Part shown: in pieces, positions 6,366-63,918 of the stretch
Position numbering within the stretch: position 1 is the first letter of the stretch
How the letters are laid out: the number at the start of each line of letters is the position of its first letter
Source: an uncultured Fibrobacterales bacterium
GTDB taxonomy: Bacteria > Fibrobacterota > Fibrobacteria > Fibrobacterales > CAWVXU01
Direction of reading: 5' to 3'
Length of the DNA: 64,000 nucleotides
Assembly: GCA_963934255.1 (NCBI GenBank)
Contig: CAWVXU010000004.1
Span: 1,641-65,640, forward strand
The notes under the pieces: model-generated
The model's database searches: none
Seen by the model: the letters and a program-made list of their open reading frames with translations, nothing else
Told to the model about the DNA's origin: nothing
Program-made: the position numbers and the translations under genes

Positions 6366-6746
6366 ATGGCTAATGTTGTAGTGGTAGATGATTCAGAATA
6401 TATGGTCAACGTATTGAAGCAATTCTTGCAGTCTATTGGGCACCAAGTTGTGGGTTTTGGGTTAGATGGCAATGAGGGCTATAACCTCTATCGTAAACAT
6501 AGCCCAGATTTAATGATACTTGATTTAACTATGCCAAATCGCCATGGACGTGAATGCCTGTTTGACGTTCTTGATTGGGACCCAGACGCCAAGGTTTTAA
6601 TTGTGTCTACTGTTAAAAATGAAATGACGATTTTGGAATGTCTAGAAAGAGGAGCAAAAGGGTTTGTTGAAAAGCCACTTAAATTTTCCAGTCCAGCTTT
6701 CTGTGATGAATTTAAGACAACTATTGAAAATGCATTAAACGGCTAG
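6366..6746 (+). CDS. Single-domain CheY-like response regulator receiver
   Basis: 126 aa. It has VVVDDSEYM (acidic pair), LMILDLTMPNRHG (phospho-acceptor Asp context), LIVSTV and FVEKPL (conserved Lys). There is no output domain. Confidence 0.85.
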   Translation: MANVVVVDDSEYMVNVLKQFLQSIGHQVVGFGLDGNEGYNLYRKHSPDLMILDLTMPNRHGRECLFDVLDWDPDAKVLIVSTVKNEMTILECLERGAKGFVEKPLKFSSPAFCDEFKTTIENALNG

Positions 6747-6763
6747 TTAGTTGAGGAGTCAGT

Positions 6764-8845: not shown

Positions 8846-8857
8846 TTTATTGCTTAA

Positions 8858-10018
<1,161 letters not shown>

Positions 10019-10043
10019 ATTTAATTCTTAATTACAAATTTTT

Positions 10044-10083
10044 AACCACTCTCAAACTATTTTTGAGCGTGGTTTTTCTTTTA
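10044..10083 (+). terminator. Rho-independent terminator after leuB
   Basis: Imperfect stem AACCACtCTCAAA / TTTGAGcGTGGTT followed by a T-rich tract. Confidence 0.6.
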
Positions 10084-10130
10084 TTGTCCTATTCAATTTT
10101 CTACATTTCGGACAAAGAAACGAGATTGCC

Positions 10131-11711
10131 GTGGCTGAACAAGTAAAAATATACGACACAACCTTGCGTGATGGAAATCAAGCAAGAGGCCTCAGTTTTT
10201 CCCTAGCCGACAAATTGAATATTGCCAAGAAACTAGATACTTTTGGAGTTGATTATATTGAAGGTGGATGGCCAAACCCAACCAATCCAATTGATGTTGA
10301 ATTCTTTCAAAAAATGTCACAATATGAGTTAAAAAAGGCAAAGATTACCGCATTTGGCTCCACGAGAAGACCAGGTAAAGCTTGTAATGAAGATCCTATA
10401 TTGTTGGCGCTTGTTGAGGCCAAAGCATCCGTTTATACGATTTTTGGTAAGTCTTGGGATATTCATGTAACTGATGTTATTCGAACGACATTAGATGAAA
10501 ATTTAAAAATGATAGAAGAGAGTGTTGCCTTTCTTAAAGAAAAAGCTGACGAAGTCTTTTATGATGCCGAACACTTTTTTGATGGTTATAAAGCCAACCC
10601 CAAATACGCCCTAGAGACCCTCAAAGCAGCTCAAAGAGGTGGAGCAGATTGTATAGTACTTTGTGACACCAATGGTGGAATGGCACTCTCTTGGGAATTT
10701 CAAGAAATAATTGGTGAGGTACAAGAAATAATTATTGCACCTCTGGGTGTACATTGTCATAATGATACAGAATCTGCAGTTGCAAATTCACTCGCAGGTG
10801 TGAGGCAAGGTGTGGTTCAAGTTCAAGGTTGTATCAACGGCATTGGTGAGCGATGTGGCAATGCAAACCTCACGACGATTATTCCGAACCTTCAGTTTAA
10901 AATGAAAAAAGAGCTTAAATGTTCTGGAAATTTAAGTGATTTAAGGCGCTTATCTCTCTATGTGGATGAAATTGCAAATATTGGTTCAAACATACGCGCT
11001 CCCTATGTAGGTGAAGCTGCTTTTGCGCACAAAGGTGGAGCTCATATTGATGGCGTTATGAAACTTTCTCATTCCTTTGAACACCTTGATCCGAGTCAAG
11101 TAGGGAATGAACGCGAATTCATTATTTCGGATCAAGCAGGTGGTTCTTTAATCGTTGTAAGGCTAAATTCAATTTTTCCTAATTTGGACAAAAAAGATCC
11201 AAAAGTGAAAGCTATTTTAAGTGAAGTAAAAGAAAAAGAAACAAAAGGTTACCATTTTGAAACTGCTGGAGGCTCTTTTGAACTTATTGCTCGCAGAGCA
11301 TTATCTGAGTATGTAGACCCAGTTAAAGTGAAATCATATCGAGTAATTGAAGAGCATCAAGAAAATGGTAGTTTAGTTTCAGAAGCAACCGTGAAGCTTG
11401 AACTAAACGGTAAAATTTTACATCGGGTGGCTGAAGGGGAAGGCCCGGTGAATGCACTTGACGCCGCCTTTAGAATTGCATTGTCAGAGCGTCTTGATTT
11501 TATTCAAGCTGTGAAGCTTGATGATTATAGAGTTCGAGTTTTAGACTCTAAGGAGGGCACGGCTTCTAGTGTTCGCGTTTGGGCAACCTTTTCGGACGAA
11601 AAGGATACATGGAATACAGTAGGTGTTTCAGAAAACATTATTGAGGCTTCATGGGAAGCACTCATGGACGGTTTTAATTTTAAAATTATGAAGGAGACAT
11701 CCAATGTCTAA
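10131..11711 (+). CDS. cimA: LeuA-family synthase of the CimA type (probable (R)-citramalate synthase)
   Basis: IYDTTLRDGNQ, YIEGGWPNPTNPIDVEFF, AEHFFDGYKANPKYALETLKAAQRGGADCIVLCDTNGG and HCHNDTESAVANSL resemble the Geobacter/Leptospira-type citramalate synthase clade as I remember it. GTG start. The 3' end overlaps ilvE by 8 nt. Confidence 0.75.
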   Translation: MAEQVKIYDTTLRDGNQARGLSFSLADKLNIAKKLDTFGVDYIEGGWPNPTNPIDVEFFQKMSQYELKKAKITAFGSTRRPGKACNEDPILLALVEAKASVYTIFGKSWDIHVTDVIRTTLDENLKMIEESVAFLKEKADEVFYDAEHFFDGYKANPKYALETLKAAQRGGADCIVLCDTNGGMALSWEFQEIIGEVQEIIIAPLGVHCHNDTESAVANSLAGVRQGVVQVQGCINGIGERCGNANLTTIIPNLQFKMKKELKCSGNLSDLRRLSLYVDEIANIGSNIRAPYVGEAAFAHKGGAHIDGVMKLSHSFEHLDPSQVGNEREFIISDQAGGSLIVVRLNSIFPNLDKKDPKVKAILSEVKEKETKGYHFETAGGSFELIARRALSEYVDPVKVKSYRVIEEHQENGSLVSEATVKLELNGKILHRVAEGEGPVNALDAAFRIALSERLDFIQAVKLDDYRVRVLDSKEGTASSVRVWATFSDEKDTWNTVGVSENIIEASWEALMDGFNFKIMKETSNV

Positions 11712-14690: not shown

Positions 14691-14764
14691 CGGAGTATAG
14701 CTCAGCCTGGTAGAGCACTAGTTTTGGGTACTAGGGGCCGTAGGTTCGAATCCTGCTACTCCGA
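14691..14764 (+). tRNA. tRNA-Pro (anticodon UGG)
   Basis: Cloverleaf read by eye. The acceptor stem is CGGAGTA/TACTCCG with discriminator A. The D arm is GCTC..GAGC. The anticodon stem CTAGT/ACTAG encloses loop TTTGGGT, giving anticodon TGG with G37. The T arm is GTAGG-TTCGAAT-CCTGC. No CCA is encoded. Confidence 0.9.
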
Positions 14765-31817: not shown

Positions 31818-32066
31818 ATGAATAGGGCCCTAATTTAAGCCGGTGAGCAATTTCAAACAATATATTTTCGTCTCTTCGGCTTGGTTCTAAATTGTAATTA
31901 GAGTAATTTTAAAAGATGAAACAATTATAATTAAATAAACTTCTTCTACTTTTGAGTTGTAATACGCTCTCATTTTAAGAGTTTGTCTCGCAATTTTGTT
32001 AATTTTTGCTTACTCTTATGGGGCAGGCTTTTTTTACTTTTTTCTTTTCCAATTAAGGATGTTGTT

Positions 32067-33602
32067 ATGACACAGAGAAAACCATTTTTTTATGATGTTA
32101 CTTTAAGAGACGGTAACCAAGCTTTAGCTAAACCTTGGAATACTGAGGAAAAAGTACAAGTTTTTAATCAACTCGTTAAACTGGGGGTTCAGGGAATCGA
32201 AGTAGGATTTGCTGGTGCCAGTGATATGGATTTCGCTGCGTGTGAACACCTTGCTAAGATGGCACCTGATGACATTGTGATCTCTGGACTTGCTCGTGCA
32301 ATGGAAAAAGACATAGCTAAAGTTTGGGAGGCTATTCAATACGCAAACCAACCTCGTATCCATACCTTTATTGCTACAGCGCCATTTAATATGGAGCATG
32401 TGTTACGTAAATCCCCTCAAGAAGTTTTGAAAAAAGCGGAAGAAGCGGTTAGAATTTCCAAATCATACGTAGGGGATCAGGGGACAGTTCAGTTTTCAGC
32501 AGAGCATTTCGGTGATTGTCGTGAGAACTTAGATTTCGTCATTGATGTATTTCACGCAGTAGTTGAAGCTGGTGCAACGACAATTAATTTACCAAATACT
32601 GTTGAGCGCTATCGTCCGATGTTATTTGTAGAGATGGTAGCCAAAGTAGTTGAAGCTTTACCAAATAATATAGATGTTGCCGTACACGCCCATAATGATC
32701 TTGGCATGGCCACTGCGACCACCGTTGAATCATACTTTGCAGGTGCAGTCCAAGTGGAAACAGCTTTAAATGGATTGGGTGAGCGAGCAGGAAACACAAA
32801 TATGTATGAGGTCGCTTTAGGGCTTCATAACTGTGGTGTGGATGTACCTTTAAATTTAGAACATATTTATGAGACAGCTTTACTTGTTAGTGATTGGGGC
32901 GATCTTAGAATACCAGATAAGGCTCCTATCATAGGACCTGAAGCGATTGCTCATAGGTCAGGAATACATCAAGATGGAGCTGCCAAGACAAAGGGTATGT
33001 CTAAGGGCGCTTATCGTCCGATTGATTTCAATTTAATTGGCCGTGGTGATAATGACTTAATTACTTTCACATCTCAGTCCGGTCGAACTGCTGTTTATGA
33101 GATGATTGGAAATATGGGATATCCAATTAGCCTTGAAGAAGCGACTGAACTACAGCCTGTTTTGAAAGAGATTTCAGAACGTGAAGGCGAATTGAACGAA
33201 GAACGCGTCCTCGAAATATTCAAAAATGAATACGTTAATGTTGGTAGTTACTTGAAATTCACATCAGTCAATGGCATACGTGACGAGGAAGTGTTTGAGT
33301 TTAAATTCAAGCGTGGTAACGAGATTCTACAAGAACGAATTTCTGCAGAGGGTCCTATTGAAGCTTGTCTTCGATTACTTCGTGAATTAGGGTATTCTGT
33401 TGAACTGAAAGATTATAGCCAGAGTGTGGTCAGTGACAAAGACAAAGATTGGGGAGGGCGTGCGCTTTCTGAGATTGAGCTTAAGTCAAAAGACAAGATT
33501 GCTGTGGGCCGAGGAGTTCATAACGATACACTTGTGGCAAATATGAAAGCATTATTTACTGCAGCAAATTTACTTTTCCATAAATTTGAACCTGTAAAAT
33601 AA
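32067..33602 (+). CDS. leuA: 2-isopropylmalate synthase
   Basis: YDVTLRDGNQA, IEVGFAGAS, HAHNDLGMATA and NGLGERAGNTNMYE are present, plus a C-terminal regulatory domain. I prefer the ATG at 32067 (AAGGAT RBS); the track start at 31983 adds a T-rich hydrophobic extension. Confidence 0.88.
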   Translation: MTQRKPFFYDVTLRDGNQALAKPWNTEEKVQVFNQLVKLGVQGIEVGFAGASDMDFAACEHLAKMAPDDIVISGLARAMEKDIAKVWEAIQYANQPRIHTFIATAPFNMEHVLRKSPQEVLKKAEEAVRISKSYVGDQGTVQFSAEHFGDCRENLDFVIDVFHAVVEAGATTINLPNTVERYRPMLFVEMVAKVVEALPNNIDVAVHAHNDLGMATATTVESYFAGAVQVETALNGLGERAGNTNMYEVALGLHNCGVDVPLNLEHIYETALLVSDWGDLRIPDKAPIIGPEAIAHRSGIHQDGAAKTKGMSKGAYRPIDFNLIGRGDNDLITFTSQSGRTAVYEMIGNMGYPISLEEATELQPVLKEISEREGELNEERVLEIFKNEYVNVGSYLKFTSVNGIRDEEVFEFKFKRGNEILQERISAEGPIEACLRLLRELGYSVELKDYSQSVVSDKDKDWGGRALSEIELKSKDKIAVGRGVHNDTLVANMKALFTAANLLFHKFEPVK

Positions 33603-33756: not shown

Positions 33757-34716
33757 GTGGATATAACGATGAAAAATATTCGCTTATGGGTAGTAATACT
33801 TTCTGGCATTTATGTTTTGATTTGCTTGGGAGCTTACTATGGCCAGGTTCACTTGACATTTGCTGTTACAAAAATATCAAGTGAAAGTAAGATTCAACTA
33901 TTGAGCAAGTATGATGGCCGTCTTAAGGAGATTCAATGGGTCAATTCTGCTCAAGATACCCTGTGGGGGTTTAGTTTACTTAAAGAAAATCTCAAGGCAA
34001 TAAACTTATCAGAGGATCAATTGAAGCAGGAATGGAACAATTATTCTCAGGATGAAGCCATTGTCGGACCAAATCTTGGATCGAGCAGATATTCGGAACG
34101 ATATTCAGGTCGAAAAATTTTGTTGTATTTTGGTGGTAATGCCGATGATGTCTGGGAGGCAATTCAGCTCGTAGATCTTCCTGATTATGATGTTTATTCT
34201 ATAAATTACCCGGGATTTGGTCGCTCTATGGGAGTGCCTCTTGAGAGCACTATCATTTCAAATGCACAAGGATTTTATAACAGCCTCGAAATTCCAGTAA
34301 ATACGCCGGTCTTGATTGTAGGCAGAAGTCTAGGAACTGGAGTCGCTGTCCAATTGAGCCAATGGATATTGTCCAACAAGTTAAAAGATGTAAAACTTTT
34401 AGAAACTTTTTTAATTACTCCCTATAATTCACTTTGGAAAATAGGAAAACATAGATACCCGTATTTACCTGTGAAGGCACTGATTACATCGCCTTTTGAA
34501 TCAGAAAATTACCTGAGTGAGTTAAAAAATAAAGTGAGTGTGGTTTATGCAGAATCAGATCAAATAGTACCTCATCATTACACAGACTCCCTGGTGGTAA
34601 AGTTACAGAGTAGGAACTTGCCTCAATCGCTTGATATCGATACGATTTTTGGGTTTAACCACAACTCGATCCTACAATCACCTGGTTTAAATGCTTTGCT
34701 TCATGCTACTCACTAA
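33757..34716 (+). CDS. Alpha/beta-fold hydrolase, membrane-anchored
   Basis: N-terminal TM helix. The nucleophile elbow is GRSLGTG (GxSxG). ESD and a late His are candidate triad residues. GTG start at 33757, or ATG at 33769. Confidence 0.7.
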   Translation: MDITMKNIRLWVVILSGIYVLICLGAYYGQVHLTFAVTKISSESKIQLLSKYDGRLKEIQWVNSAQDTLWGFSLLKENLKAINLSEDQLKQEWNNYSQDEAIVGPNLGSSRYSERYSGRKILLYFGGNADDVWEAIQLVDLPDYDVYSINYPGFGRSMGVPLESTIISNAQGFYNSLEIPVNTPVLIVGRSLGTGVAVQLSQWILSNKLKDVKLLETFLITPYNSLWKIGKHRYPYLPVKALITSPFESENYLSELKNKVSVVYAESDQIVPHHYTDSLVVKLQSRNLPQSLDIDTIFGFNHNSILQSPGLNALLHATH

Positions 34717-34821: not shown

Positions 34822-37800
34822 ATGAGTCAAAAAATTGTAGTGAGAAACGCCCAAGAACACAACCTTAAAGGTATCGATATTGATATCCCTCGGGATAGTA
34901 TGGTCGTTGTTACTGGTGTTAGCGGATCAGGTAAAAGTTCCTTAGCTTTTGATACACTGTTCCAAGAAGGGCAAAGAAAGTATATCGAGTCCCTCTCGGC
35001 ATATGCTAGACAATTTATTGGTACGATGAAGACTCCTAAGGTAGAGAGAATTGAAGGTATTAGTCCGACAATTTCCATCGATCAGAAGACAGTAAATAGA
35101 AATCCAAGATCAACCGTGGGAACCATTACTGAGATTTGGGATCACCTTAGATTGCTATTTGCAAGACTAGGAATTCCACATTGTCCCTCATGTGGGGATT
35201 TGATTCAGGCTCAAACAGTTTCACAAATAACTGACGGACTTCTTGTTGATTATTACGATGCCAAGCTCATTATTATGGCGCCTATTGTTCGAGAACGCAA
35301 AGGTGAATATCGTAAGGAATTGAGCGAGCTACAGCAAGCCGGCTTCGTTCGTGCGCGTATCGATGGAGAAATGCGTGAACTTGATGAAGACATTGTTTTA
35401 GCTAGATATGAAAAGCACAGTATTGATGTTGTGGTGGATCGTCTAGTGATTGAGGATAAAACTTTACCAAGAATTCGTGAATCTATAGAAGCTGCGCTTA
35501 AGCAGTCAGTTGATCTAGTCAGCTTTATGATTAATGATGAATATATGCTTCAAGGTACTTCACTTTCATGTTCTAAATGTCGCGTGACAATTCCTGAAAT
35601 TGAGCCGAGACTTTTTAGTTTTAATGACCCACAAGGTCAATGCTCTAGTTGTACTGGTCTTGGCTTCATTCAAGATTTTGAAATTGAATTGTTGATACCA
35701 GACCCGAGTCTTTCAATTGAGCAAGGTTGTATCAAAGCACAAATGGCTGAAGGCCATTTAATGTTTAGCCGTTATGGAATGCAAGAGTTTAAAATTCTAG
35801 CCAAGGAATATGGGTTTCAATTAAACGTGCCTTGGAATAAAATGTCTAAAAAGGCTAAGCACATTTTAATGTATGGTTCCGAAGATGAGCTGAAATTCAA
35901 ATTAAAACGTCGCGGTCGACGTGGTTTAAAAATTAAAGACGAGCATCGAAGGGTCAGGGGGTTTCTAGAAGTTTTACAGCGTGTTTGGAATCAATGGCAC
36001 ATTCCTATGATGAATAAATATATGCGCCGTACCGATTGCGACACTTGTCATGGTGATAAATTAAATACTGCGGCAATGGCGGTTCTATTTGAAGGAAATA
36101 ATATTCAAGAATTAAGTCGTCTCGGAGTTTCAGATGCGAGAAAACTTTTTGACCAATTTCCTCGCAATCCAAGAGAAGAAAAGATTGGTGGTGAATTGTT
36201 TAGTGAGATTCAATCAAGGTTAAGTTATTTAGATGAAGTTGGTTTGGGTTATTTAACATTAGATCGTGCCGCCAATACTTTGTCAGGCGGTGAGTCACAA
36301 CGGATTCGACTTGCTTCTCAAGTGGGTGCTGGTTTACAGGGCGTTACTTATATTCTTGATGAACCATCTATTGGGTTACATCCTCGTGATAATGAAAAAC
36401 TTTTGGAAATATTGCAACGATTAAAAAATCTAGGTAATACGCTTATCGTGGTTGAGCATGACGAAGATACGATGCTTCAAGCTGATCAGGTGATTGATAT
36501 TGGACCCGGGGCCGGTGTCGAAGGTGGTGAAATTTTAGCTTCTGGATCTTTGAAATCAATTGTCAATAATAAAAAGTCTATTACTGGAGCTTATCTCAGT
36601 GGTCGAGAAAAAATTGAAGTTCCAAGTATTCGCCGTGAGTTAAGTGCTGATTCGATTAAAGTAATTGGTGCCTGTGAAAATAACTTAAAAAATATTGATG
36701 TGGAATTCCCCTTAGGAGGAATGGTCACATTAACTGGAGTGTCAGGTTCTGGAAAGTCCACCTTGATGAATCAAATTCTTAAAAAGTCTTTGGCTCAAAC
36801 CTTGCATGGTGCAGAAGATGTTCCAGGAGCTCATCAAAAAATTGAAGGTGTTGGTTTTATTGATAAAGTCATAGAAATTGACCAAAGTGCTATAGGGAGA
36901 ACTCCAAGATCTAACCCGGCAACTTATACCAAAATTTGGGATGAGATTAGAAATCTATTTGCTCAACTCACTGAATCGCAAGTCCGAGGTTATTCTAAAG
37001 GTCGCTTTTCATTTAATGTGAATGGTGGACGGTGTGAAGAATGTGAAGGCGCCGGCGTCAATGTCATTGAGATGCAATTACTTGAAAATGTTCAAGTCCC
37101 TTGTGAATCTTGCAATGGGAAACGCTTTAATCCGGCTACTCTAGAGATTCATTTTAAGGGTAAGACTATTTCTGATATTCTAGGAATGTCGGTGAGTATC
37201 GCGCTAGAATTTTTTAAAGCCCACCCAAAGATTTATCGAGGATTAAAAATTCTTGAGGATATTGGATTGGGTTATCTTGAACTCGGTCAACCAAGTACCA
37301 CTCTTTCGGGCGGTGAAGCTCAAAGAATGAAGATTGCTTCTGAATTAAAAAAGCCAGAAAAAGGACACACTCTTTATCTTCTTGATGAACCAACAACTGG
37401 CTTGCATTTCCATGATATTAAGCGCCTCATTTCTTGTATGAATACCTTGGTGGATAGACAAAATTCCATGATTGTCATTGAGCATAATTTGGATGTAGTT
37501 AAAGTCTCTGATTGGGTGATCGATATGGGGCCCGATGGTGGAGACGGCGGCGGTGAGATAGTCTTTTGTGGTCGACCTGAGGATCTAGCCAAATGTAAGA
37601 AGTCAGATACGGGGAGATATTTAAAACCATTACTCAATCCAAAAAGAAACCCCAGTGAAGAACTTTTTACGAGTAAATCCTATCTAGAAACTCAAAAAAG
37701 ATTAAAAGAAAAGTCGAAAGAAAAAGTCGATCTAGATATACTCATTCAAGGTGCCAAAAAGCATAACTTAAAGAATATTGATGTGAGAATACCTAGACAT

Positions 37801-40248
37801 AAGTTGACGGTGTTAACAGGTGTCTCTGGCTCTGGTAAATCATCTCTTGCATTTCATACACTTTTTGCGGAAGGGCAACGACGCTTTGTTGAGAGTATGA
37901 GTACCTATGCGAGAAGATTTTTGGGTCAGATGGATCGTGGTGGAGTTGAAGCAATCCAAGGTCTAGCGCCATCTATTGCAATTGATCAGTCGAGCACCAA
38001 CAGAAGCCCTAGATCCACTGTGGCTACAATCACCGAGCTCTATGATTATTTCAGATTGTTATTTTCTCGAATAGGGAGGCCTCACTCCCCAGCTTCTGGT
38101 GGATTAATGGTACGATATAGCCATTTGGATCTATACAAAAAAGTGTTAAGAGAAAATGAAGGTGAAAACTTATTTATCATGGCTCCCGTTTTGCATCCTA
38201 GGATTAATCTAAACCTTATTGCAAAAGACCCTGCGAATTTAAAAGCACTTGTATCAAGGTTTTTGGAGTTAGGTTACAGACGCTTATGGGATGGTAGTCG
38301 TTGGATAATTTTAGATGAGGACACGAAACTTCCTAGTTTACAACAAGCTTGGCTTTTGATTGATAGAGTTAAAGTGGGTTCTAAAAATCGGGCGAGAATC
38401 ATTGAATCGTTTGAACAAGCTGAAGAGTATGGACATGGTCTGATTGCCTGTTCCGCTGGGAACCCAGAAGATGGCTTACCTATCAGTATTTACTCAAATT
38501 TTTATGGAAATAATGACGACCTATACTTCTTTGATGGTGAACTAGAGCCGAAACATTTCTCTTTTAATTCGCATTGGGGGGCATGTATCGTCTGCACTGG
38601 CCTTGGTTTTGTGGGGTCGAAAGTTTGTCCGTCTTGTGACGGTGATAGACTCAAGCCGGAATATAGTGCTGTTCTTGTGGGTGGCATTAATGTGACTGAA
38701 TTATCAAGAATGAGTATTGCCACTCTATTACAATTCTTTAAAGATTTAGAACTGTCTAAAACCGAAAACCTAATCGTTAAACAACTCTTGAAAGAGGTGA
38801 TGGGGCGTTTAGAATTTCTAGTAAAAGTGGGCCTTGATTATATCCAACTTGATCGCAGAGGTGATACTTTATCAGGAGGGGAGGCACAACGAATTCGTTT
38901 GGCATCTCAAATTGGCTCCGGTCTAGAAGGAGTACTTTATGTGCTAGATGAACCTACAGTGGGATTACACCAAAAAGACACAGACTTACTTCTACAGACT
39001 TTATTTCAATTGAGAAATCTGGGCAATACTGTCGTCGTGGTAGAACATGACTTAGAATTCATACGTCACTCTGATCACTTGATAGAGCTTGGACCAGGAG
39101 CCGGTGACCTTGGGGGTGAACTCATCGCCGAGGGTACACCTAAACAATTAGCAAGGAAAAAGAAGTCTCTTACTGGACAATACTTATCGGGTAAGAAACA
39201 ACTCGGCCTGGGCTATGGAGCAGAAGTAGAACAAATTGAAATGGTTGACTCATGGGTCACTTGGAATCAAATAAACTTTAGAAGTCTGAAAAATTTTGAC
39301 TTAAAAATACCACAAGGAGCCTTGACTGTGGTTACTGGTGTTTCAGGCTCAGGTAAGTCAACTTTGATAGAAGAGTGCTTATACCCACTTGCTTATGCCA
39401 AAATTAATAGAAAAAGAAAACCAAATAAAGAGTTTGGTGATATATCTTGGGATAGTGAATTTAAACAGGTTCAGTTAATTGATCAAAGCCCTATTGGTAA
39501 ATCACCAAGGTCAACTCCTATTACTTATACCAAAACATTTGATTTAGTTCGAGATTTATATGCTTCTTTAAATGAATCAAAAATAAAGGGCTATAACAAA
39601 GGTCGTTTCTCTTTTAATAAGGCGGAGGGACGATGTGCTGAGTGTGAAGGCAAGGGGTCTCACTATATCGAGATGCATTTTTTATCTGATGTTTGGGAGC
39701 TATGTGAATCATGCCAAGGGCAAAGGTATAATCAGGATACTTTAGCGATTAAATTTAAAGGTAAAAGTATTGCTGATGTCATGAGTATGAGGATTAACGA
39801 AGCAGTAGAGTTTTTTGAATCTCAACCCAAGATTGTTAAAACGCTTAAAACCTTCAAAGAAATTGGCCTCGGCTATCTCAAATTAGGTCAACCCGCAAAT
39901 ACTTTGTCTGGAGGTGAAGCTCAACGTTTGAAGCTTGCTGCAGAACTTGCTAAAGCAGGGCGGAGTCAAGGGCTGTTTTTGTTAGATGAGCCTACTACGG
40001 GGCTTCATATGGATGATATACAGAGGCTCTGGGCTTTACTTCGAAGATTAGTGAGTCAAGGTCACACCGTGGTTCTTATCGAACATCACCCAGAAGTCAT
40101 CGCTAAATCAGATTGGGTCATTGACCTTGGTCCTGTTGGTGGTGATTTGGGCGGAGAGCTATTGTTTTCAGGTTGGTCCAAAGATTTGTTGAAATTGAAA
40201 AAGAATGAGACCACTCAGGCTGTTTTAAAAGCAATGACGCATATGTAA
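34822..40248 (+). CDS. uvrA: Tandem-duplicated excinuclease ABC subunit A (UvrA-UvrA fusion, 1808 aa)
   Basis: One uninterrupted ORF. It has four Walker A motifs GVSGSGKS(S/T), with codons starting near nt 34915, 36736, 37819 and 39337. It has four ABC signatures LSGGE(S/A)QR and four Walker B motifs LDEP(S/T). Module A (938 aa) ends in the canonical GRYLKPLL. A Lys/Glu-rich linker follows at 37636-37728, then module B of about 839 aa. Confidence 0.9.
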   Translation: MSQKIVVRNAQEHNLKGIDIDIPRDSMVVVTGVSGSGKSSLAFDTLFQEGQRKYIESLSAYARQFIGTMKTPKVERIEGISPTISIDQKTVNRNPRSTVGTITEIWDHLRLLFARLGIPHCPSCGDLIQAQTVSQITDGLLVDYYDAKLIIMAPIVRERKGEYRKELSELQQAGFVRARIDGEMRELDEDIVLARYEKHSIDVVVDRLVIEDKTLPRIRESIEAALKQSVDLVSFMINDEYMLQGTSLSCSKCRVTIPEIEPRLFSFNDPQGQCSSCTGLGFIQDFEIELLIPDPSLSIEQGCIKAQMAEGHLMFSRYGMQEFKILAKEYGFQLNVPWNKMSKKAKHILMYGSEDELKFKLKRRGRRGLKIKDEHRRVRGFLEVLQRVWNQWHIPMMNKYMRRTDCDTCHGDKLNTAAMAVLFEGNNIQELSRLGVSDARKLFDQFPRNPREEKIGGELFSEIQSRLSYLDEVGLGYLTLDRAANTLSGGESQRIRLASQVGAGLQGVTYILDEPSIGLHPRDNEKLLEILQRLKNLGNTLIVVEHDEDTMLQADQVIDIGPGAGVEGGEILASGSLKSIVNNKKSITGAYLSGREKIEVPSIRRELSADSIKVIGACENNLKNIDVEFPLGGMVTLTGVSGSGKSTLMNQILKKSLAQTLHGAEDVPGAHQKIEGVGFIDKVIEIDQSAIGRTPRSNPATYTKIWDEIRNLFAQLTESQVRGYSKGRFSFNVNGGRCEECEGAGVNVIEMQLLENVQVPCESCNGKRFNPATLEIHFKGKTISDILGMSVSIALEFFKAHPKIYRGLKILEDIGLGYLELGQPSTTLSGGEAQRMKIASELKKPEKGHTLYLLDEPTTGLHFHDIKRLISCMNTLVDRQNSMIVIEHNLDVVKVSDWVIDMGPDGGDGGGEIVFCGRPEDLAKCKKSDTGRYLKPLLNPKRNPSEELFTSKSYLETQKRLKEKSKEKVDLDILIQGAKKHNLKNIDVRIPRHKLTVLTGVSGSGKSSLAFHTLFAEGQRRFVESMSTYARRFLGQMDRGGVEAIQGLAPSIAIDQSSTNRSPRSTVATITELYDYFRLLFSRIGRPHSPASGGLMVRYSHLDLYKKVLRENEGENLFIMAPVLHPRINLNLIAKDPANLKALVSRFLELGYRRLWDGSRWIILDEDTKLPSLQQAWLLIDRVKVGSKNRARIIESFEQAEEYGHGLIACSAGNPEDGLPISIYSNFYGNNDDLYFFDGELEPKHFSFNSHWGACIVCTGLGFVGSKVCPSCDGDRLKPEYSAVLVGGINVTELSRMSIATLLQFFKDLELSKTENLIVKQLLKEVMGRLEFLVKVGLDYIQLDRRGDTLSGGEAQRIRLASQIGSGLEGVLYVLDEPTVGLHQKDTDLLLQTLFQLRNLGNTVVVVEHDLEFIRHSDHLIELGPGAGDLGGELIAEGTPKQLARKKKSLTGQYLSGKKQLGLGYGAEVEQIEMVDSWVTWNQINFRSLKNFDLKIPQGALTVVTGVSGSGKSTLIEECLYPLAYAKINRKRKPNKEFGDISWDSEFKQVQLIDQSPIGKSPRSTPITYTKTFDLVRDLYASLNESKIKGYNKGRFSFNKAEGRCAECEGKGSHYIEMHFLSDVWELCESCQGQRYNQDTLAIKFKGKSIADVMSMRINEAVEFFESQPKIVKTLKTFKEIGLGYLKLGQPANTLSGGEAQRLKLAAELAKAGRSQGLFLLDEPTTGLHMDDIQRLWALLRRLVSQGHTVVLIEHHPEVIAKSDWVIDLGPVGGDLGGELLFSGWSKDLLKLKKNETTQAVLKAMTHM

Positions 40249-40266: not shown

Positions 40267-41391
40267 TTAGTAATTGTATTTGTGAGGAAGTTTTCGCTCT
40301 ACCATTTGTTCAACAACTACGTCGGGTTGATAAAGTTTGACTAAAGAATCTAGTTTTGATTTGGATAGTTTTTCCCAATAAAAGTGGGCCTCACCAAATT
40401 GGCGTGCGATAAATGGGATTAAGGCAACGGAATATGAATCTCTAAACATGAGTAAAGTAAGCTTTTTATTATGGCATTTGGTGTGAACCGTAGCAGTTTC
40501 TAGTTCGTGGTCCCTTTCTTCAGAGTATTGACAAAGACTATCTGGAAATTGAGGGCGGGGGTCTTTATCAATTTTATTTAAACTTTGTACCATTGTGACA
40601 AGATCACCATTGAGTTTATCTTGATTCTTGAATTCATTTTCTTTAACTAGATAAGGTTTTATGTCTTCAGGGAAAAATTTTGCAATTCTATTTAATAATT
40701 CATACTGAACAAGGTTGGCACCATGCATATTCCAATGAGTATCGTATTGATAGTATAGGCGATTACGTTCCTTGGCCGCAGTTAGCAGAGGGAGGACATT
40801 TATGTAATGTTCTTTTAGGATGGGCATTGCTGTTGAGTTTAATTGGTCATAGACATTCAACTTGGATTGCTTTTTAATATAAGAAGGAAGATTTTCTGGA
40901 TAGATGGTATGCTTGCTTGGTGTGATAAAGTAAAAGAAGGGGATAGCCTTTGCTTCTAATTCAACCTTCACTTGATTCATTGATTGAACAAATTGGTTTA
41001 ATTCATTTGTAGTGAAATTATTCTGATTAGTATAGTCACCAATCGGGTCACCAAAACGTTCGTAATTCGGTCTGATACTACCGAGATAAAACCAATCATC
41101 CTTCCCTAAAGTCACATCTTGTACAAAATATTTTTGAATAATCCTTGAATAGAGACTATTTAGTTCAATTCTAAAACCAAATTGATCAGAATAATAGTCA
41201 TCAAATTGCTTCGGCCATTGCTTAAAATCAGTGAGCGATATGGGTGGGGGGGGGAATTGTTTCAAACTACGTTTTTCACTAGGTGATTTTTTTAGATCAT
41301 CTTGACTTAGCCATTTGAAAATGGGAAAAAACAAGATACTGACAAACCCAAGAACTAAGAACCATTTCGATATATTTGATTTTTGACTCAT
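40267..41391 (-). CDS. AlgJ/AlgX-like (SGNH-like) polysaccharide O-acetyltransferase component
   Basis: N-terminal membrane anchor and the YQYDTHWNMHGA motif (DxHW of the AlgJ/AlgX family). I prefer the ATG at 41391, 1 nt after the stop of the upstream MBOAT gene. Confidence 0.7.
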   Translation of the reverse strand: MSQKSNISKWFLVLGFVSILFFPIFKWLSQDDLKKSPSEKRSLKQFPPPPISLTDFKQWPKQFDDYYSDQFGFRIELNSLYSRIIQKYFVQDVTLGKDDWFYLGSIRPNYERFGDPIGDYTNQNNFTTNELNQFVQSMNQVKVELEAKAIPFFYFITPSKHTIYPENLPSYIKKQSKLNVYDQLNSTAMPILKEHYINVLPLLTAAKERNRLYYQYDTHWNMHGANLVQYELLNRIAKFFPEDIKPYLVKENEFKNQDKLNGDLVTMVQSLNKIDKDPRPQFPDSLCQYSEERDHELETATVHTKCHNKKLTLLMFRDSYSVALIPFIARQFGEAHFYWEKLSKSKLDSLVKLYQPDVVVEQMVERKLPHKYNY

Positions 41392-41392
41392 A

Positions 41393-42820
41393 TTAAAACC
41401 TAAAATAAATAAATGGGTTATAAGTTGAAGATGCAATCTTCAATACGCAAAAGCAAAAAAGACAAAGCAAAAAGAACATTTTACTTAACTTGGCAAGCTC
41501 ATAATTGATACCTATTCTTTTAAAATTGTTTCTAATTAAATGTTTTAACAGATTAAAAGTAGGGAATGCAATAAATAATGAGATTGTTCCAATCAACATA
41601 AATTCTTTACTAAAGATGGAAAGAATTTGAAATTGATTCGTCCAAATATTGTTGAAGTTGAACATGTCAGAAAGGTATAAAATAGAACCATTGAGACTTT
41701 CTGATCGGAAAAAAACCCAGCCAATGAGTACTATTGTAATAGTATATGAATGTTGAATTACTCCAGGTAATTTGTTGAGTAACTTATACCCACCAGCGTG
41801 TTCAAGAGCTAAAAACGTACCATGAAAAAGCCCCCAAATTAAAAAGTTCCAACTCGCCCCATGCCAAAAACCTGTGACAACAAATACACAAAATAGATTG
41901 AAATAGATACGAGATGATCTCACTCGGCTTCCACCTAATGGTATGTATAAATAATCCCTAAACCAAGTCGAAAGTGATATATGCCAGCGTCGCCAAAACT
42001 CCCTAATAGATCTAGATATATAGGGGTAGTTGAAGTTTTCTAAAAAGTGGAAACCAAACATTTTACCTAGTCCAATAGCCATATCAGAATATCCTGAAAA
42101 ATCAAAATAAATTTGAAGTCCGTATGCGATAATTCCAATCCATGCAATTGGCAGAGTGCGTTCATCGGAAGAAAGTTGAAATATTAAGTCACTCAGTTCA
42201 CCCATTGGATTGGCAAGCCACATTTTTTTACTCAATCCAAAGATGAATCTTTCAATACCAAGGCTGAAATCACTGAGCTTGTGAGCTCTTGATTCAATTT
42301 GGTCAGTTACATCTGAAAAACGAACAATAGGGCCAGCAATGAGCTGAGGGAAGAGAGAGAGATATAATGCAAGGTGGAATATGTTTTTTTGAACTTTAGC
42401 ATCATTACGGTAAACATCTACTAAATACGAGATGGCTTGAAAAGTAAAGAAACTAATTCCGAGTGGTAGGTGAATATCTGGAGGAGTGAGTGATAGACCA
42501 TGGTCGGTCCCGATAAATTTATTCCAATTTTCAATGAGAAAGCTAAGATATTTAAAATGTAATAAGATGACTAGGTTTAAGCCAACACCCACTAAGAGTA
42601 CTTTTTTCTTTTGGTTAGAGTAATCTAGCCAAATCCCCACACTATAATTAACAGTAATTGAGGCTATCATGACTAATAAATAAGTAAATTCACCCCAAGC
42701 GTAGAATAATAAACTCATCCCTAATAAAATGAGATTTTTTACTGACTTGGGGCTCAAGAAATAGAACACCAAAGTCAATGGTAAAAAACCAAATAGGAAT
42801 GTTGGGGAGGTGAAAACCAT
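41393..42820 (-). CDS. MBOAT-family membrane O-acyltransferase (AlgI/DltB/PatA-like)
   Basis: 475 aa and polytopic. The MBOAT hallmark FWRRWHISLSTWFRDYLYIPLGG and FVVTGFWHG (catalytic His) are present. Confidence 0.9.
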   Translation of the reverse strand: MVFTSPTFLFGFLPLTLVFYFLSPKSVKNLILLGMSLLFYAWGEFTYLLVMIASITVNYSVGIWLDYSNQKKKVLLVGVGLNLVILLHFKYLSFLIENWNKFIGTDHGLSLTPPDIHLPLGISFFTFQAISYLVDVYRNDAKVQKNIFHLALYLSLFPQLIAGPIVRFSDVTDQIESRAHKLSDFSLGIERFIFGLSKKMWLANPMGELSDLIFQLSSDERTLPIAWIGIIAYGLQIYFDFSGYSDMAIGLGKMFGFHFLENFNYPYISRSIREFWRRWHISLSTWFRDYLYIPLGGSRVRSSRIYFNLFCVFVVTGFWHGASWNFLIWGLFHGTFLALEHAGGYKLLNKLPGVIQHSYTITIVLIGWVFFRSESLNGSILYLSDMFNFNNIWTNQFQILSIFSKEFMLIGTISLFIAFPTFNLLKHLIRNNFKRIGINYELAKLSKMFFLLCLFCFCVLKIASSTYNPFIYFRF

Positions 42821-54085: not shown

Positions 54086-55069
54086 TTAAGCCCTTGCCTC
54101 CTTGGGGATCAAAATATAAGTCAGCAGTCCTAAGAATGCTTGGAAAACCATCAAAAGGTATGCCAATAAGCTGACTTGCAGACAATGTGAATCACTTACG
54201 CCACTTAATTGCCCCAATATATAGATACTCGTAGCTTCTCTAAGTCCTACTCCCCCGATACTGATCGGGAGGTATAAGAGTAAGCTAAGTACAGAAAAGT
54301 AGATAGCGTTATCCCAAAAGGATATTTCAGCTCCAACTCCTTGATAAAAAAGAAGTTGAATAATAGATATAAGAATTTGTATTAAAAAAGAATACATCAA
54401 AGCAAGCCCGAGAGTTTTAGGTTGTTTGACTGTAGCTTGAATGTGATGGATAGATGCTTTGAAAACTTTAAATGGTATAAATTTAGCAACCCAATTTGAT
54501 TTGAAAATAGTGATCAGACAAAAGAGAAAAACGAGCAATGAAATTATACTCAGTGGAAGGTAAGTAGACTCTGGAAGAAGCTCTCTCGATGAAAAAGGTA
54601 GTGAAACCCACATTAAGAGCATCATCATTGATAGACCTAGAATCTTCGCAAAGACAATAGAGCCAATACTTTCTGATTTGGCTTCTATTACTTTTCCTAA
54701 TGAATATGATTTAATAATATCAGCTCCAACTCCAAGGGGAACCGCTAAATTAAGCGCATATCCGTAAAGTATATACTTAAGTAAAAAGGGGAAAGTGATT
54801 GAATTACCGTGTTTGAGTAATAATATTTTCCACCTTAGTCCTTGTAATAAAACAATTACCAGGGAAATAAGTAGACCGCTGAGTACATGGAAAACACTAA
54901 TGTTTTTTAACTCATCAATTACTTGATGATAATCAAATTTTTTAGTCACAAAATAAATTAGTCCGAAGCTAATGATTACTTTGAGTGCTGTTAGTGTGTG
55001 CTTCAATGTTAACTCATTTTTCTGATGTATTGAGAATTGAATTATTATTGCTTTTCCATGCATAGGCAA
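54086..55069 (-). CDS. Flippase-like (UPF0104 / LPG-synthase-TM family) membrane protein
   Basis: Polytopic. The N-terminal pattern KKFDYHQVIDELKNISVFHVLSGLLISLVIVLLQGLRWKILL is characteristic of this family. The true start may be downstream, because the track start overlaps the upstream gene by 56 nt. Confidence 0.6.
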   Translation of the reverse strand: MPMHGKAIIIQFSIHQKNELTLKHTLTALKVIISFGLIYFVTKKFDYHQVIDELKNISVFHVLSGLLISLVIVLLQGLRWKILLLKHGNSITFPFLLKYILYGYALNLAVPLGVGADIIKSYSLGKVIEAKSESIGSIVFAKILGLSMMMLLMWVSLPFSSRELLPESTYLPLSIISLLVFLFCLITIFKSNWVAKFIPFKVFKASIHHIQATVKQPKTLGLALMYSFLIQILISIIQLLFYQGVGAEISFWDNAIYFSVLSLLLYLPISIGGVGLREATSIYILGQLSGVSDSHCLQVSLLAYLLMVFQAFLGLLTYILIPKEARA

Positions 55070-57584
55070 TTAGACCTATAAGAATAGCAAGTCCAAGATA
55101 GACCCATTTTTTGGTAGAACGAACTGATTCACTAATAAATTGAACCGTTATATTTGAACTCCCTTGAGGAATTTCAAAAGCTAATAGGGTATGAAATGCT
55201 TTAAGAGGTGGCGTTTGTACTCCATTAACCATTATGACCCAATCTTTATGAAAGTTTTCATTAAAAAGAATATAACCAGATGATTCCGATTGTGTCTTCA
55301 TCTCATAGAAATCGGAGCTATTTGAACTTGTTATAGTGGATGTAGCTTTTGGTAGCGGTAATTCTGTTCTAGTTATTTGACCCAAACTATCTGTTTGAGT
55401 AATTGGGTTGGGACGCTCTATGGTCTTGATGTCATCATGCAGCTCTTTATCAAGAATGATTGTATTTTGATAGTCTGATTTACCAGATTTTAAGTAGGTC
55501 GGGATATCAATGTTTTTTCGTTTTTCGGAATAATGAAAAACAGTTGTGCGCGCAAAGGCCGAATCATTTTGAATGATTTGATTTTGCCCATTTCTATTTC
55601 TTACAATCAGAGATTTAGCTCCTAATAAATTCAAGAATGGGTTACTTTGAATGTTTTTTAAGCTTGCCCCTAGTTGTAGTTTATACAATAAATTTTCTGA
55701 ACTACGACCGCCTTTAAATGATCGAAAACTTGATAACTTATTATCATGATCACCTTGTAAAAATCTCAAGCCAAAATAAGGTCCGAAATTTGAGTTTATA
55801 GATTGGCCGTTAATATTGAATACTCGATATGAATTTAAGCTATCGGTATTGAGTGCTTTGATGGGTTGAGAAAAAGACTCCGCGGGTGGTAGTTTTGATG
55901 ATCGATCCAGAGTGACATTAAATGGGTTAAGAATCATTAAATTAGTTCCTAGACCAAGAATGAAAAACGCGATTAAAATTTGTGTTTGATCTTTGTGTAT
56001 TTTTAAGACGAAGTAAGTGAGACCTGAACAAAAAACAAGCCAAATAAAACTCGTGATAGTATTTCCGGGTGCCAAGGCGATTAAGTTAAGTTTTTCACCT
56101 GCTAAAGGGGTAAAGTATGGTGCTGCTTCGAATGATGGCCCATGAGAAAATCCAAGTAAAAGAATAGATAATAGAGGAACTGCTAGTCCCAGCCAAACGG
56201 ATTTGGGAACGTCTTTTAAACTATTAAAGTGCGTCTTAACTATGTATAAAATAAAAGCAACAAACAAAATGGAAGCAAATCCAGCTAAGCCACCCTTGGC
56301 ACTCGGCCATTGAAACCGGAGTAATGTGAGAATGAAACCTAATGCAATCAAAGTAGCAAAGGGTTTCCAGTTCAGGTTTGATCGGAGAGTTTCAATTTTG
56401 GGGAAATAAACTAAAATTTGAGAAGCGGAGATAAGGAGTAGAACGGGAATCCAAAATAAAACCATTGATGGTGCACGAAAACTTTTTGCTCCTGGGATAA
56501 TTTCATAAAATAGTTTAAATAGGGGAGTATCAGCACCAACTGAATAGATCACAAGTAGACTCATTGCTGAGACGAGAAAGAGACTTTGTTTCCAAAAGCG
56601 GCTTGAAAATAATCCAATAATTCCCAAAATTAATAAAACAAGCCCTGGTGAATCGTGATTGAGTTTAAAATGATTGTGGCCCCAGTATGGGTTTTCCATT
56701 GTATTAGACTTCGGGCTAGGTAGAGAATAACCTACAAAGTTTGGAAGAATCATTGATGCAGTCTCTTCAAAATGATTTGACCAAGATGCGGAGTGACCAA
56801 AGGATTGCTGTTGGGCATCCGAGCGCACTGATTGGGTCGTGGTATATTCATAGGGAGGGATGATTTGCAAGGAACAAAGACCCAGGCCTGCAATGAGGGC
56901 AATGCCGATTAAAACTTGTCTTTGAACTTTTAATTTATTAGAGGATTTTGTGTCATTGATGAAATTTTCAAATAGACTAAAGAATAAAATACCCCAGAGA
57001 AAAAAGTAACCGAGTTGAATGTGGCCCATGATGGCCCAAACGGAAGTAAAAGCAAATATTGGAAGACCCCAAGTCCAATTTTCTCGACAATACTTGATAA
57101 TTGCGTATGCACCTAGAGGAGCGATGGCAATAACCATCATTTTCCCATCATGCCCAGGATAAATGTGAGTGAAAAATTGTGGATTAAGAGCAAATAAAGA
57201 TGCAAGAAGTCCGCCAATTCTCCAATCTTTAGTTAAATAACTTCCCAATATATAAGCGCTAATAAAGCCGCTAAGCAGTGTAGTGGCGAACATCCATGCG
57301 AGAGAACGAGCAGGGTCCATCAATAATTGTAAAAAGGTGATTGGGTGGTAAGGGGAGCCATAGGTTGCATCTAAAGTCGGATAACCGCCAATTTTACTAG
57401 GGTCCCAATGCGGTAACCAGAAACTTGTTCTGAACCATTTGCCACCAATGTGATTGAGCTGGTCTTGAGACATAATTAATTGATTGGAATCAAATAGGGC
57501 ATCCTTCATCAAAAAGCTAATGATAACCGCAAATGAGAGAGTCAAAAGGCCAAAATATTTTAGATTTAGTGGTGTTGCTTTCAA
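55014..57584 (-). CDS. Large polytopic membrane protein, YfhO-like (GT-C-type glycosyltransferase candidate)
   Basis: 856 aa with more than 12 predicted TM helices, followed by a ~300-aa extracytoplasmic C-terminal domain and a final TM helix. This architecture and the N-terminus resemble the YfhO family. The assignment rests on recollection only. Confidence 0.5.
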   Translation of the reverse strand: MKATPLNLKYFGLLTLSFAVIISFLMKDALFDSNQLIMSQDQLNHIGGKWFRTSFWLPHWDPSKIGGYPTLDATYGSPYHPITFLQLLMDPARSLAWMFATTLLSGFISAYILGSYLTKDWRIGGLLASLFALNPQFFTHIYPGHDGKMMVIAIAPLGAYAIIKYCRENWTWGLPIFAFTSVWAIMGHIQLGYFFLWGILFFSLFENFINDTKSSNKLKVQRQVLIGIALIAGLGLCSLQIIPPYEYTTTQSVRSDAQQQSFGHSASWSNHFEETASMILPNFVGYSLPSPKSNTMENPYWGHNHFKLNHDSPGLVLLILGIIGLFSSRFWKQSLFLVSAMSLLVIYSVGADTPLFKLFYEIIPGAKSFRAPSMVLFWIPVLLLISASQILVYFPKIETLRSNLNWKPFATLIALGFILTLLRFQWPSAKGGLAGFASILFVAFILYIVKTHFNSLKDVPKSVWLGLAVPLLSILLLGFSHGPSFEAAPYFTPLAGEKLNLIALAPGNTITSFIWLVFCSGLTYFVLKIHKDQTQILIAFFILGLGTNLMILNPFNVTLDRSSKLPPAESFSQPIKALNTDSLNSYRVFNINGQSINSNFGPYFGLRFLQGDHDNKLSSFRSFKGGRSSENLLYKLQLGASLKNIQSNPFLNLLGAKSLIVRNRNGQNQIIQNDSAFARTTVFHYSEKRKNIDIPTYLKSGKSDYQNTIILDKELHDDIKTIERPNPITQTDSLGQITRTELPLPKATSTITSSNSSDFYEMKTQSESSGYILFNENFHKDWVIMVNGVQTPPLKAFHTLLAFEIPQGSSNITVQFISESVRSTKKWVYLGLAILIGLIAYAWKSNNNSILNTSEK

Positions 57585-63536: not shown

Positions 63537-63912
63537 CGGGGATGCTCAGGTTTCGACAGGTTAATGGAAAAATAAGTTGCATGCAGAGGACTCGGTTGGC
63601 CTCTTAAAAAAACCGTAAACAAATAATTGCAGAAGATAACTATTCTTACGCAATGGCTGCTTAATCTAAACTCGTTTTAGTTTAAGTGTCCATCCCACAT
63701 GATGCTTCGCGCGTAGGGTGATTGTGGGTATATATAAAAACGGGCTAGGCTCTCTCAGTGTTCTGGGGTGAGGGTTGAAATTTACGGAACTGGTCTTTTG
63801 GTTAGCCGACCTTTTTGGGCGAGGCAGTAGACGAGAATCAAATCAAAGGTAAAGCATGTAGGAGCGAATTTGGAAGTCTTCTTGGACGCGGGTTCAATTC
63901 CCGCCATCTCCA
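63537..63912 (+). ncRNA. ssrA: tmRNA (SsrA), standard one-piece
   Basis: The 5' end GGGGATGCTCAGGTTTCGACAGG pairs with the 3' end CATCTCC+A. The conserved GGTTGGCCTCTTAAAAAAACCG lies upstream of the resume codon. The tag ORF GCA GAA GAT AAC TAT TCT TAC GCA ATG GCT GCT TAA (63629-63664) encodes AEDNYSYAMAA. The T-arm is GGACGCGGGTTCAATTCCCGCC. Confidence 0.93.
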
Positions 63913-63918
63913 TATATT

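Follow-up and report, generated by a model that had tools for sequence, protein, structure and literature searches.

A single-chain double UvrA from a Fibrobacterales bacterium whose C-terminal module lacks the insertion domain and the ligands of zinc module 1

A DOUBLE-LENGTH UvrA GENE IN ONE READING FRAME

The stretch of DNA analyzed here (the window) comprises 64,000 nucleotides (nt) of contig CAWVXU010000004.1 from an uncultured Fibrobacterales bacterium, and the gene in question encodes a double-length homolog of the excision repair protein UvrA. It occupies nt 34822-40248 on the + strand, as do all of its features described below, and encodes 1808 amino acids (aa) plus a stop codon, with two UvrA units arranged head to tail in one uninterrupted open reading frame (ORF) of 5427 nt. 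The NCBIfam UvrA model NF001503 matches the product in 3 stretches with 2314.6 bits. We refer to residues 1-940 as module A, to residues 941-967 (approximate limits) as the linker, and to residues 968-1808 as module B. The linker (nt 37642-37722) is a hydrophilic segment of ~30 residues, rich in K, E, S, and P and poorly conserved; the closest orthologs are 36-43% identical to it in a gapped alignment, with a proportion of nonsynonymous differences (pN) of 0.41-0.42 relative to the window protein.

The Walker A motif, Q-loop, LSGGE signature, Walker B motif, and H-loop each occur four times, so that there are two ABC ATPase sites per module. By motif search, the Walker A sites are found at residues 32-39 (GVSGSGKS, nt 34915-34938) and 639-646 (nt 36736-36759) of module A, and at residues 1000-1007 (nt 37819-37842) and 1506-1513 (nt 39337-39360) of module B. 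The positions of the first and third of these, 32 and 1000, give an offset of exactly 968 residues between the modules. This is the value used in the initial annotation, which had aligned the two halves by eye from the sequence and whose quoted motifs (HCPSCG, CSKC, CSSCTGLG, CDTCHGDK, HSPASG, and NDDL) all lie at the coordinates it gave. A computed BLASTP alignment of the halves, with 48% identity over the C-terminal 531 residues and 38% over the N-terminal 307, reproduces the by-eye alignment, which is sound because BLASTP likewise jumps from A283/B1264 to A406/B1269.

Module A (nt 34822-37641) scores 1326.3 bits against NF001503 (cut-off 1147) and spans profile positions 3-942 of 943. Its zinc module 1 (Zn-1) is recognized by motif in a first knuckle with C121 and C124 (nt 35182-35193), part of the HCPSCG that starts at residue 120 (nt 35179-35196), and in a second knuckle, CSKC, with C250 and C253 (nt 35569-35580). 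The UvrB-binding domain between them, called the arm below (residues 125-249, nt 35194-35568), is matched by PF17760 (UvrA_inter) over residues 131-238 with 114.5 bits and carries the class I motifs RKGEYRKE, GFVRARIDG, and RYEKH. The two knuckles of Zn-2, C274/C277 (nt 35641-35652, CSSCTGLG from nt 35641) and C406/C409 (nt 36037-36048, CDTCHGDK from nt 36037), are 128 residues apart and enclose the insertion (DNA-binding) domain (residues 278-405, nt 35653-36036), which PF17755 (UvrA_DNA-bind) matches over residues 289-392 with 66.5 bits. Zn-3 is again evident as a motif, with C738, C741, C761, and C764 (nt 37033-37113). Judged by these sequence features, module A by itself qualifies as a genuine class I UvrA, and its UvrB-binding domain is canonical.

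A SECOND MODULE WITHOUT INSERTION DOMAIN AND ZN-1 LIGANDS

Module B (nt 37723-40245) is class I-like in its layout and has neither an insertion domain nor the ligands of Zn-1. It retains both ATPase sites, the signature domains, Zn-3 (motif with C1605, C1608, C1628, and C1631, nt 39634-39714), and a four-cysteine Zn-2 (C1255, C1258, C1269, and C1272, nt 38584-38637), which is reduced to a short hairpin with 10 residues between the knuckles. The Zn-2 string reads CIVCTGLGFVGSKVCPSCDGDR and covers 22 residues (nt 38584-38649). Tested alone, module B reaches 994.3 bits with NF001503, below the cut-off of 1147, and 969 bits with TIGR00630, above the cut-off of 729.8.

At the position of the first Zn-1 knuckle, as located by BLASTP and by comparison with relatives, module B has S1089-P-A-S1092 (nt 38086-38097) within HSPASG (residues 1088-1093, nt 38083-38100), and at that of the second, according to the alignment to relatives, N1231-D-D-L1234 (nt 38512-38523). 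The four-ligand site of module A is therefore absent from module B, where S1089, S1092, N1231, and L1234 stand in place of the ligands. In relatives that keep Zn-1, the second knuckle sits 24-26 residues ahead of the first Zn-2 cysteine, and the placement of NDDL is independently confirmed because it occupies just that position. No convincing alternative four-ligand zinc site was found in module B; the two closest orthologs share with it no more than His1088 and an acidic residue at 1233/1234 as candidate ligands.

The absence of a folded insertion domain is seen by sequence profile, by alignment to a solved structure, and by modeling: the Pfam family UvrA_DNA-bind matches module A only; phmmer against the PDB aligns module B to 2r6f (Bacillus stearothermophilus UvrA) while skipping chain residues 302-417; and an AlphaFold2 model of module B, built from a 75-sequence alignment (mean predicted local distance difference test score, pLDDT, 88.5; predicted template modeling score, pTM, 0.78), shows just a short hairpin at this position. 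The initial annotation had described the replacement of all four Zn-1 ligands and the reduction of the insertion domain to ~10 aa, with both ATPase sites and Zn-3 retained, and it had called the fusion asymmetric; all of this is borne out, the last structurally, by a full class I module A joined to a module B without insertion domain and Zn-1. Its contiguous Zn-2 knuckles do start at nt 38584, and they end at nt 38649, not at 38645, which is a trivial correction.

DISTRIBUTION AMONG RELATED DOUBLE UvrAs

From the 8000 matches of a search through 5.8 billion proteins, the best 120 were aligned over their full length and their sites tabulated. All 120 are double-length proteins of 1718-1987 aa, 46-76% identical to the window protein, and the four Walker A motifs are in register throughout the alignment. 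The named relatives belong to Fibrobacter and Fibrobacterales, Planctomycetota, and SAR324; double-length proteins annotated as "excinuclease ABC subunit UvrA" occur in these and other metagenome-assembled genomes (MAGs), and the sole named member of the sub-clade of the window protein is a Fibrobacterales bacterium.

The insertion domain is present in module A of every relative (120/120, 108-132 residues) and in module B of only 37 (114-138 residues). It is replaced by a hairpin of 11-18 residues in module B of the remaining 83, which cover 87-100% of the query, and never in module A (0/120). Zn-1 follows the same one-sided pattern on a smaller scale, with four Cys/His ligands in all 120 A modules (some as CPxGH) and in 107 of the 120 B modules. 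Erosion of Zn-1 affects no module A and 13 B modules, of which 1 retains three ligands, 4 retain two, 4 retain one, and 4 retain none; these last are the window protein with its two close orthologs (P0001-P0003) and P0051. The four Zn-3 cysteines are complete in both modules of 120/120 relatives, and the arm of module B is kept at full length in all of them (102-152 residues; 139 in the window protein).

On a neighbor-joining tree, insertion-domain loss maps to a minimum of three or four distinct positions, namely a large clade with the Fibrobacter-type proteins and the query, an SAR324-type clade nested among domain-keeping proteins, the pair P0018/P0027, and P0106. For the erosion of Zn-1 the minimum is three positions, namely the query clade (P0001-4, 19, 23, and 51), P0017, and P0026/115/116/119. 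These counts are provisional because the tree is a quick one without support values. The losses are unambiguously confined to the C-terminal module. Since the insertion domain is missing from module B in 83/120 relatives, its loss is an old and common trait that is unspecific to this gene; what is peculiar to the lineage is that Zn-1 has been lost completely.

The initial annotation had spoken of a "selectively degenerate" module and a "collapsed" domain, which suggests decay. This wording does not fit a loss shared by 83 of 120 relatives, which leaves a tidy hairpin of 11-18 residues and never touches module A, nor the occurrence of the same layout among UvrA genes that stand alone and encode about 860 residues (see below). 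The lopsided design is an evolved specialty common to many related bacteria, rather than decay. The window gene is best filed as a lineage-specific variant, with a Zn-1-free second arm, of a widespread and essentially unstudied type of double UvrA. The genes are labeled simply UvrA, and the asymmetry is therefore hidden in the annotation.

Two relatives are unusual in module A: P0006 and P0008 have 289 and 228 residues, respectively, between the Zn-1 knuckles, compared to the usual ~126, and hence carry a large extra insertion within or beside the canonical UvrB-binding domain. A further locus, L010 (Bdellovibrionota MAG, nt 5975-11377), matches the double UvrA in a series of short ORFs, among them one of 439 aa and one of 186 aa. 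The breakage is probably due to long-read frameshifts, although it also suggests a pseudogene, and with its ORFs broken the locus was dropped as a comparison sequence.

FOLD AND CONSTRAINT OF THE MODULE B ARM

Between the two former Zn-1 knuckles of module B lies a domain (residues 1093-1230, nt 38098-38511) to which PF17760 and AlphaFold2 assign the fold of the UvrB-binding domain, with a divergent sequence. The Zn-1-framed domain is ~13 residues longer in module B than in module A (139 vs 126). The PF17760 score is 34.6 bits, above the threshold of 23.3, and in the AlphaFold2 model of module B the residues equivalent to 1086-1235, both former knuckles included, have block pLDDT values of 93-97. 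Modeled by itself, the arm region (190 residues) has a pLDDT of 93.0, with a range of 93-98 over the two models, and UvrA accounts for all of its best PDB matches. The region superposes on 3fpn_A, the isolated UvrA interaction domain from the UvrA-UvrB domain complex, with a template modeling score (TM) on the target of 0.83 and a root-mean-square deviation of 2.7 Å, and on 4dfc_B, the equivalent UvrA domain in the UvrA/Mfd core complex, with a TM of 0.79. As a model-based result, the PF17760 score together with the superposition on 3fpn_A shows the fold only.

Constraint was analyzed for the window gene and its two closest orthologs. Synonymous sites are saturated among these (proportion of synonymous differences, pS, 0.64-0.96), so only a qualitative statement that nonsynonymous divergence is far below synonymous divergence (dN << dS) is safe. 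For the module B arm, pN is 0.24-0.33 at a saturated pS of 0.77-0.89, which is ~1.2-1.5 times the pN of the module A arm (0.20-0.23), and the three proteins align there without gaps. These values indicate that the arm is maintained under purifying selection, rather than decaying. The loss of Zn-1 is thus not equivalent to a loss of the UvrB-binding domain, as the Pfam score, the pLDDT values, the superposition, and the constraint show.

The N-terminal regions of both modules of the 120 relatives were placed in one joint alignment for motif comparison. The module A arms carry eRKGEYRKE, Gf.RaR.DG, and L.RYekHtIE, with most positions conserved at 90% or more, and these three motifs are missing from module B in every relative examined. 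What the module B arms keep across the family is a strand "laP", one glycine, and the final helix motif DR...R.R..Ea.E.A...G. This terminal helix presumably carries the UvrB-contacting residues of B. stearothermophilus UvrA (R216/E222). No other folded part of the protein evolves as fast as the module B arm, which is 57-59% identical to that of the closest orthologs and 19-36% identical to that of more distant relatives, compared to 68-72% and 43-61%, respectively, for the module A arm.

COMPARISON WITH KNOWN UvrA PROTEINS

Compared with class I UvrAs of known structure (B. stearothermophilus 2R6F and 3UWX, Thermotoga maritima 3PIH, and Mycobacterium tuberculosis 3ZQJ), module A is missing no domain or motif, and module B has the same two ATPase modules, signature domains, Zn-2, Zn-3, and UvrB-binding-domain fold. 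Class I UvrA is a homodimer, whereas the window protein has its two modules in one chain; module B further differs from class I in having no insertion domain and no Zn-1 ligands and in its divergent arm. Sequence and structure comparisons place module B nearest to this class. By phmmer against the PDB it scores 794.5 bits with 2r6f, 561.6 bits with Deinococcus radiodurans UvrA2, and 438 bits with Ecm16. By Foldseek it reaches a TM of 0.83-0.85 to the class I UvrAs 3uwx_A and 2r6f_A, 0.72 to class II UvrA2, and 0.69 to 6n9l, a T. maritima UvrA without residues 117-399.

Class II UvrAs (D. radiodurans UvrA2 2VF7, Ecm16 7SH1, and DrrC) resemble module B in that an accessory domain has been shed together with Zn-1. 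They are defined by having neither the UvrB-binding domain nor Zn-1 (PMC9328131, PMC3167621), and the insertion domain of D. radiodurans UvrA2 is functional (PMC3025350). A class II identity for module B was rejected on account of this opposite domain content, with the arm fold kept and the insertion domain lost, and of the weaker similarity.

An engineered Escherichia coli UvrA with residues 290-400 deleted lacks the same region that is missing between the Zn-2 knuckles of module B. The engineered deletion removes the domain from both protomers, whereas in the window protein one protomer equivalent keeps it. The E. coli variant lost damage specificity in global repair and was affected differently in transcription-coupled repair (PMC3025350).

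A curated double-length model, NF001885 (PRK00635, "excinuclease ABC subunit A", 1809 positions, cut-off 3054 bits), describes proteins of almost the same size as the window protein. We take it to have been built on chlamydial proteins. The window protein reaches 1285.9 bits with this model and misses the cut-off, and its module fragments map in a different way, both N-terminal fragments best at profile positions 938-1211 and both C-terminal fragments best at 396-922. The score and this mapping of the halves rule out membership of NF001885, a family which, to go by its profile, appears to be asymmetric in a different arrangement. The other double UvrAs described above share the tandem of two modules, 83/120 share the insertion-less module B, and 107/120 keep Zn-1 in module B. 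Tandem UvrAs were reportedly listed as a separate class ("class III") by Goosen and Moolenaar in 2008; literature on tandem or double UvrAs, or on an asymmetry of module B, was not found in the full-text library searched.

FREE-STANDING UvrAs WITHOUT INSERTION DOMAIN

Three loci from marine Planctomycetaceae MAGs contain free-standing UvrA homologs of 857-866 residues (L005, nt 5944-8517 on the + strand; L003, about nt 3753-6336; and L009, about nt 5994-8592). All three keep Zn-1 and a class I-like arm and have no insertion domain, with their Zn-2 knuckles 18-24 residues apart. The L005 protein aligns with module B end to end (39.5% identity, one high-scoring segment pair of 848 residues) and with module A piecewise. 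When it is compared to the 120 double proteins, the 25 alignments with the highest scores all fall in C-terminal modules. A second uvrA-sized ORF was not found beside the free-standing gene in L005. Because these genes show the layout of module B, the combination of a present arm and an absent insertion domain is, on sequence grounds, a recurring type of UvrA module.

POSSIBLE MODE OF ACTION AND ALTERNATIVE EXPLANATIONS

In the canonical UvrA homodimer both insertion domains clamp the DNA (PMC11985968, PMC12796330), and the arm joins the UvrA body via a flexible region with a Zn finger (PMC12796330). Complexes of the composition UvrA2UvrB1 and UvrA2UvrB2 have both been seen, and how the symmetric sensor turns into an asymmetric pre-incision complex is an open question in the field (PMC11985968). 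From the architecture, fold, conservation, and family-wide pattern of the double UvrAs, we infer intramolecular pairing of the two modules, a role in excision repair, and a binding function of the module B arm. On balance we favor, by a narrow measure of confidence, the explanation that the window protein is an intramolecular and permanently asymmetric "dimer" with one DNA clamp, acting in nucleotide excision repair.

In such a protein the two protomers of the normal UvrA2 homodimer would be joined by the flexible linker of ~30 residues, and the covalent pairing would therefore leave the halves free to specialize. The DNA would be gripped by one insertion domain, that of module A, instead of two. 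UvrB would be loaded via the module A arm together with the signature-II surface of module B, and module B would thereby participate in UvrB loading from the module A arm. The module B arm would remain a protein-interaction domain with a changed affinity or partner, possibly a second UvrB or Mfd. Module B also keeps Zn-3, the damage-sensing hairpin. In the clade of the window protein, strand pairing, confidently predicted by AlphaFold2, would replace the Zn-stabilized stem of the module B arm, so that Zn-1 would no longer be needed.

Several observations weigh against this explanation. The module B arm is without the three motifs that are conserved at 90% or more in the module A arms, and it may no longer bind UvrB. 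None of uvrB, uvrC, and mfd is among the nine large window ORFs scanned with NCBIfam, and the genomic context therefore gives no support for an excision-repair role; an ordinary uvrA elsewhere in the genome could leave room for a side role. The number of independent losses depends on the quick neighbor-joining tree, which has no support values, and an experiment on any double UvrA was not found in the full-text library searched.

An artefactual origin of the double gene, be it from faulty assembly, from the chimeric joining of two uvrA genes, or from the decay of a pseudogene, is effectively refuted. The same gene has been called in two pieces, a 1160-aa protein (P0127) and a 653-aa protein (P0129), on one 82,689-bp ENA contig, which would favor this reading; but the ORF in the window is uninterrupted over its 5427 nt, the gene has 120 full-length relatives, every catalytic motif is preserved, and dN << dS. 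An assembly artefact is ruled out because the identical 1808-residue protein is found on several contigs from different, independent samples and because orthologs with 74-76% identity have the same Ser..Ser replacement in module B. The two-piece call is in our view probably a frameshift or assembly error in that one assembly, rather than a real split. The alternative closest to the suggestion of the initial annotation, which we regard as unlikely though worth serious attention, is that module B is only an ATPase and dimerization partner, its arm having lost UvrB binding, and that a single UvrB is recruited via module A. It would account for the family-wide absence of RKGEYRKE, GFVRARIDG, and RYEKH from module B, for the loss of all its Zn-1 ligands in the window protein, for the fast evolution of its arm relative to the other folded parts, and for its score below the NF001503 cut-off (994 vs 1147), and UvrA2UvrB1 is a recognized intermediate (PMC11985968). 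It is harder to reconcile with an arm that is of full length in 120/120 relatives, under purifying selection, and confidently folded, that superposes on the solved UvrB- and Mfd-binding domain, and whose C-terminal helix motif DR...R..E..E.A is conserved family-wide; were these 138 residues inert, one would expect the domain to have shrunk or vanished, as the insertion domain did.

A module A that passes the UvrA equivalog cut-off, with all class I parts and a UvrB-binding domain of the canonical kind, makes it improbable that the protein has an accessory role outside canonical excision repair, such as drug or adduct tolerance in the manner of DrrC, Ecm16, and UvrA2, beside an ordinary uvrA. 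Class II proteins are moreover defined by lacking the UvrB-binding domain (PMC9328131, PMC3167621), and module B is closer to class I structures, although UvrA paralogs with missing domains are often non-repair proteins (PMC9328131, PMC9241694) and neither uvrB nor uvrC is among the scanned window ORFs. The remaining alternative bears on how the protein arose and not on what it does now, and it can hold alongside the asymmetric-dimer explanation: the asymmetry may have been inherited through fusion of a canonical uvrA to an already insertion-less uvrA paralog, rather than having arisen by loss after a tandem duplication. The free-standing genes of 857-866 aa in L003, L005, and L009, with a UvrB-binding domain and without an insertion domain, are what such a fusion would call for, as is the end-to-end alignment of the L005 protein with module B and the restriction of its 25 best alignments to C-terminal modules; these genes could, however, equally be fission products. 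In addition, 37/120 relatives keep a module B insertion domain and, on the tree, are intermingled with the insertion-less ones, and repeated loss therefore fits better, so that a fusion origin seems doubtful to us.

UvrA is studied as a symmetric homodimer, and both the number of UvrB molecules, one or two, in the working sensor and the breaking of symmetry at the lesion are still debated (PMC11985968). Fused and unequal protomers show which parts one half can do without: often the insertion domain, sometimes Zn-1, and never the ATPase sites or Zn-3. That a fused paralog loses a domain is in itself unsurprising to specialists, but the strictly one-sided recurrence of the loss is a useful natural experiment on UvrA asymmetry, and a double UvrA allows one "protomer" to be mutated singly, without making heterodimers. 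More speculatively, tethering might have exposed an intrinsic asymmetry of the damage sensor, in which a single insertion domain and perhaps a single canonical UvrB-loading arm suffice; the spare would have been removed repeatedly, always from the C-terminal module, and the Zn-1-free arm would be the furthest step. If this tentative idea is true, these natural single-chain proteins would be ready reagents for studying how UvrA2UvrB2, a symmetric sensor, yields an asymmetric pre-incision complex in which the damaged strand carries one UvrB.

GENOMIC CONTEXT AND OTHER FEATURES OF THE WINDOW

The window is metagenomic sequence with a G+C content of about 38%. Among the nine large window ORFs scanned with NCBIfam, those recognized encode a CheA-like kinase, a hybrid histidine kinase, TypA, SMC, a citramalate synthase, and IlvC. 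The order of a LeuA-like gene, a gene of 313-319 aa without assigned family, and the double uvrA is common to the window and an orthologous locus, L014; the middle gene (nt 33757-34716, + strand, in the window; nt 8922-9863 in L014) is conserved and has no NCBIfam or Pfam match. Downstream of the double uvrA, on the - strand, lies an ALGX/MBOAT pair of the polysaccharide O-acetylation type (nt 40267-41436 and 41393-42820).

Two HMGL-family synthases are encoded 20 kb apart on the + strand (nt 10131-11711 and 31983-33602): a citramalate synthase (TIGR00977, 656 bits) and a LeuA-like one whose gene lies directly upstream of the uvrA neighborhood. The longest version of the second synthase ORF (nt 31983-33602) starts with TTG, about 28 codons upstream of the start of the 511-aa gene at locus L001. 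No ribosomal RNA gene was found in the 64-kb window. An 856-aa ORF on the - strand (nt 55014-57584) has no NCBIfam match at E ≤ 1e-5. The window also contains a tRNA gene (nt 14691-14764, + strand) and a complete tmRNA gene (nt 63538-63915, + strand, 179.4 bits).

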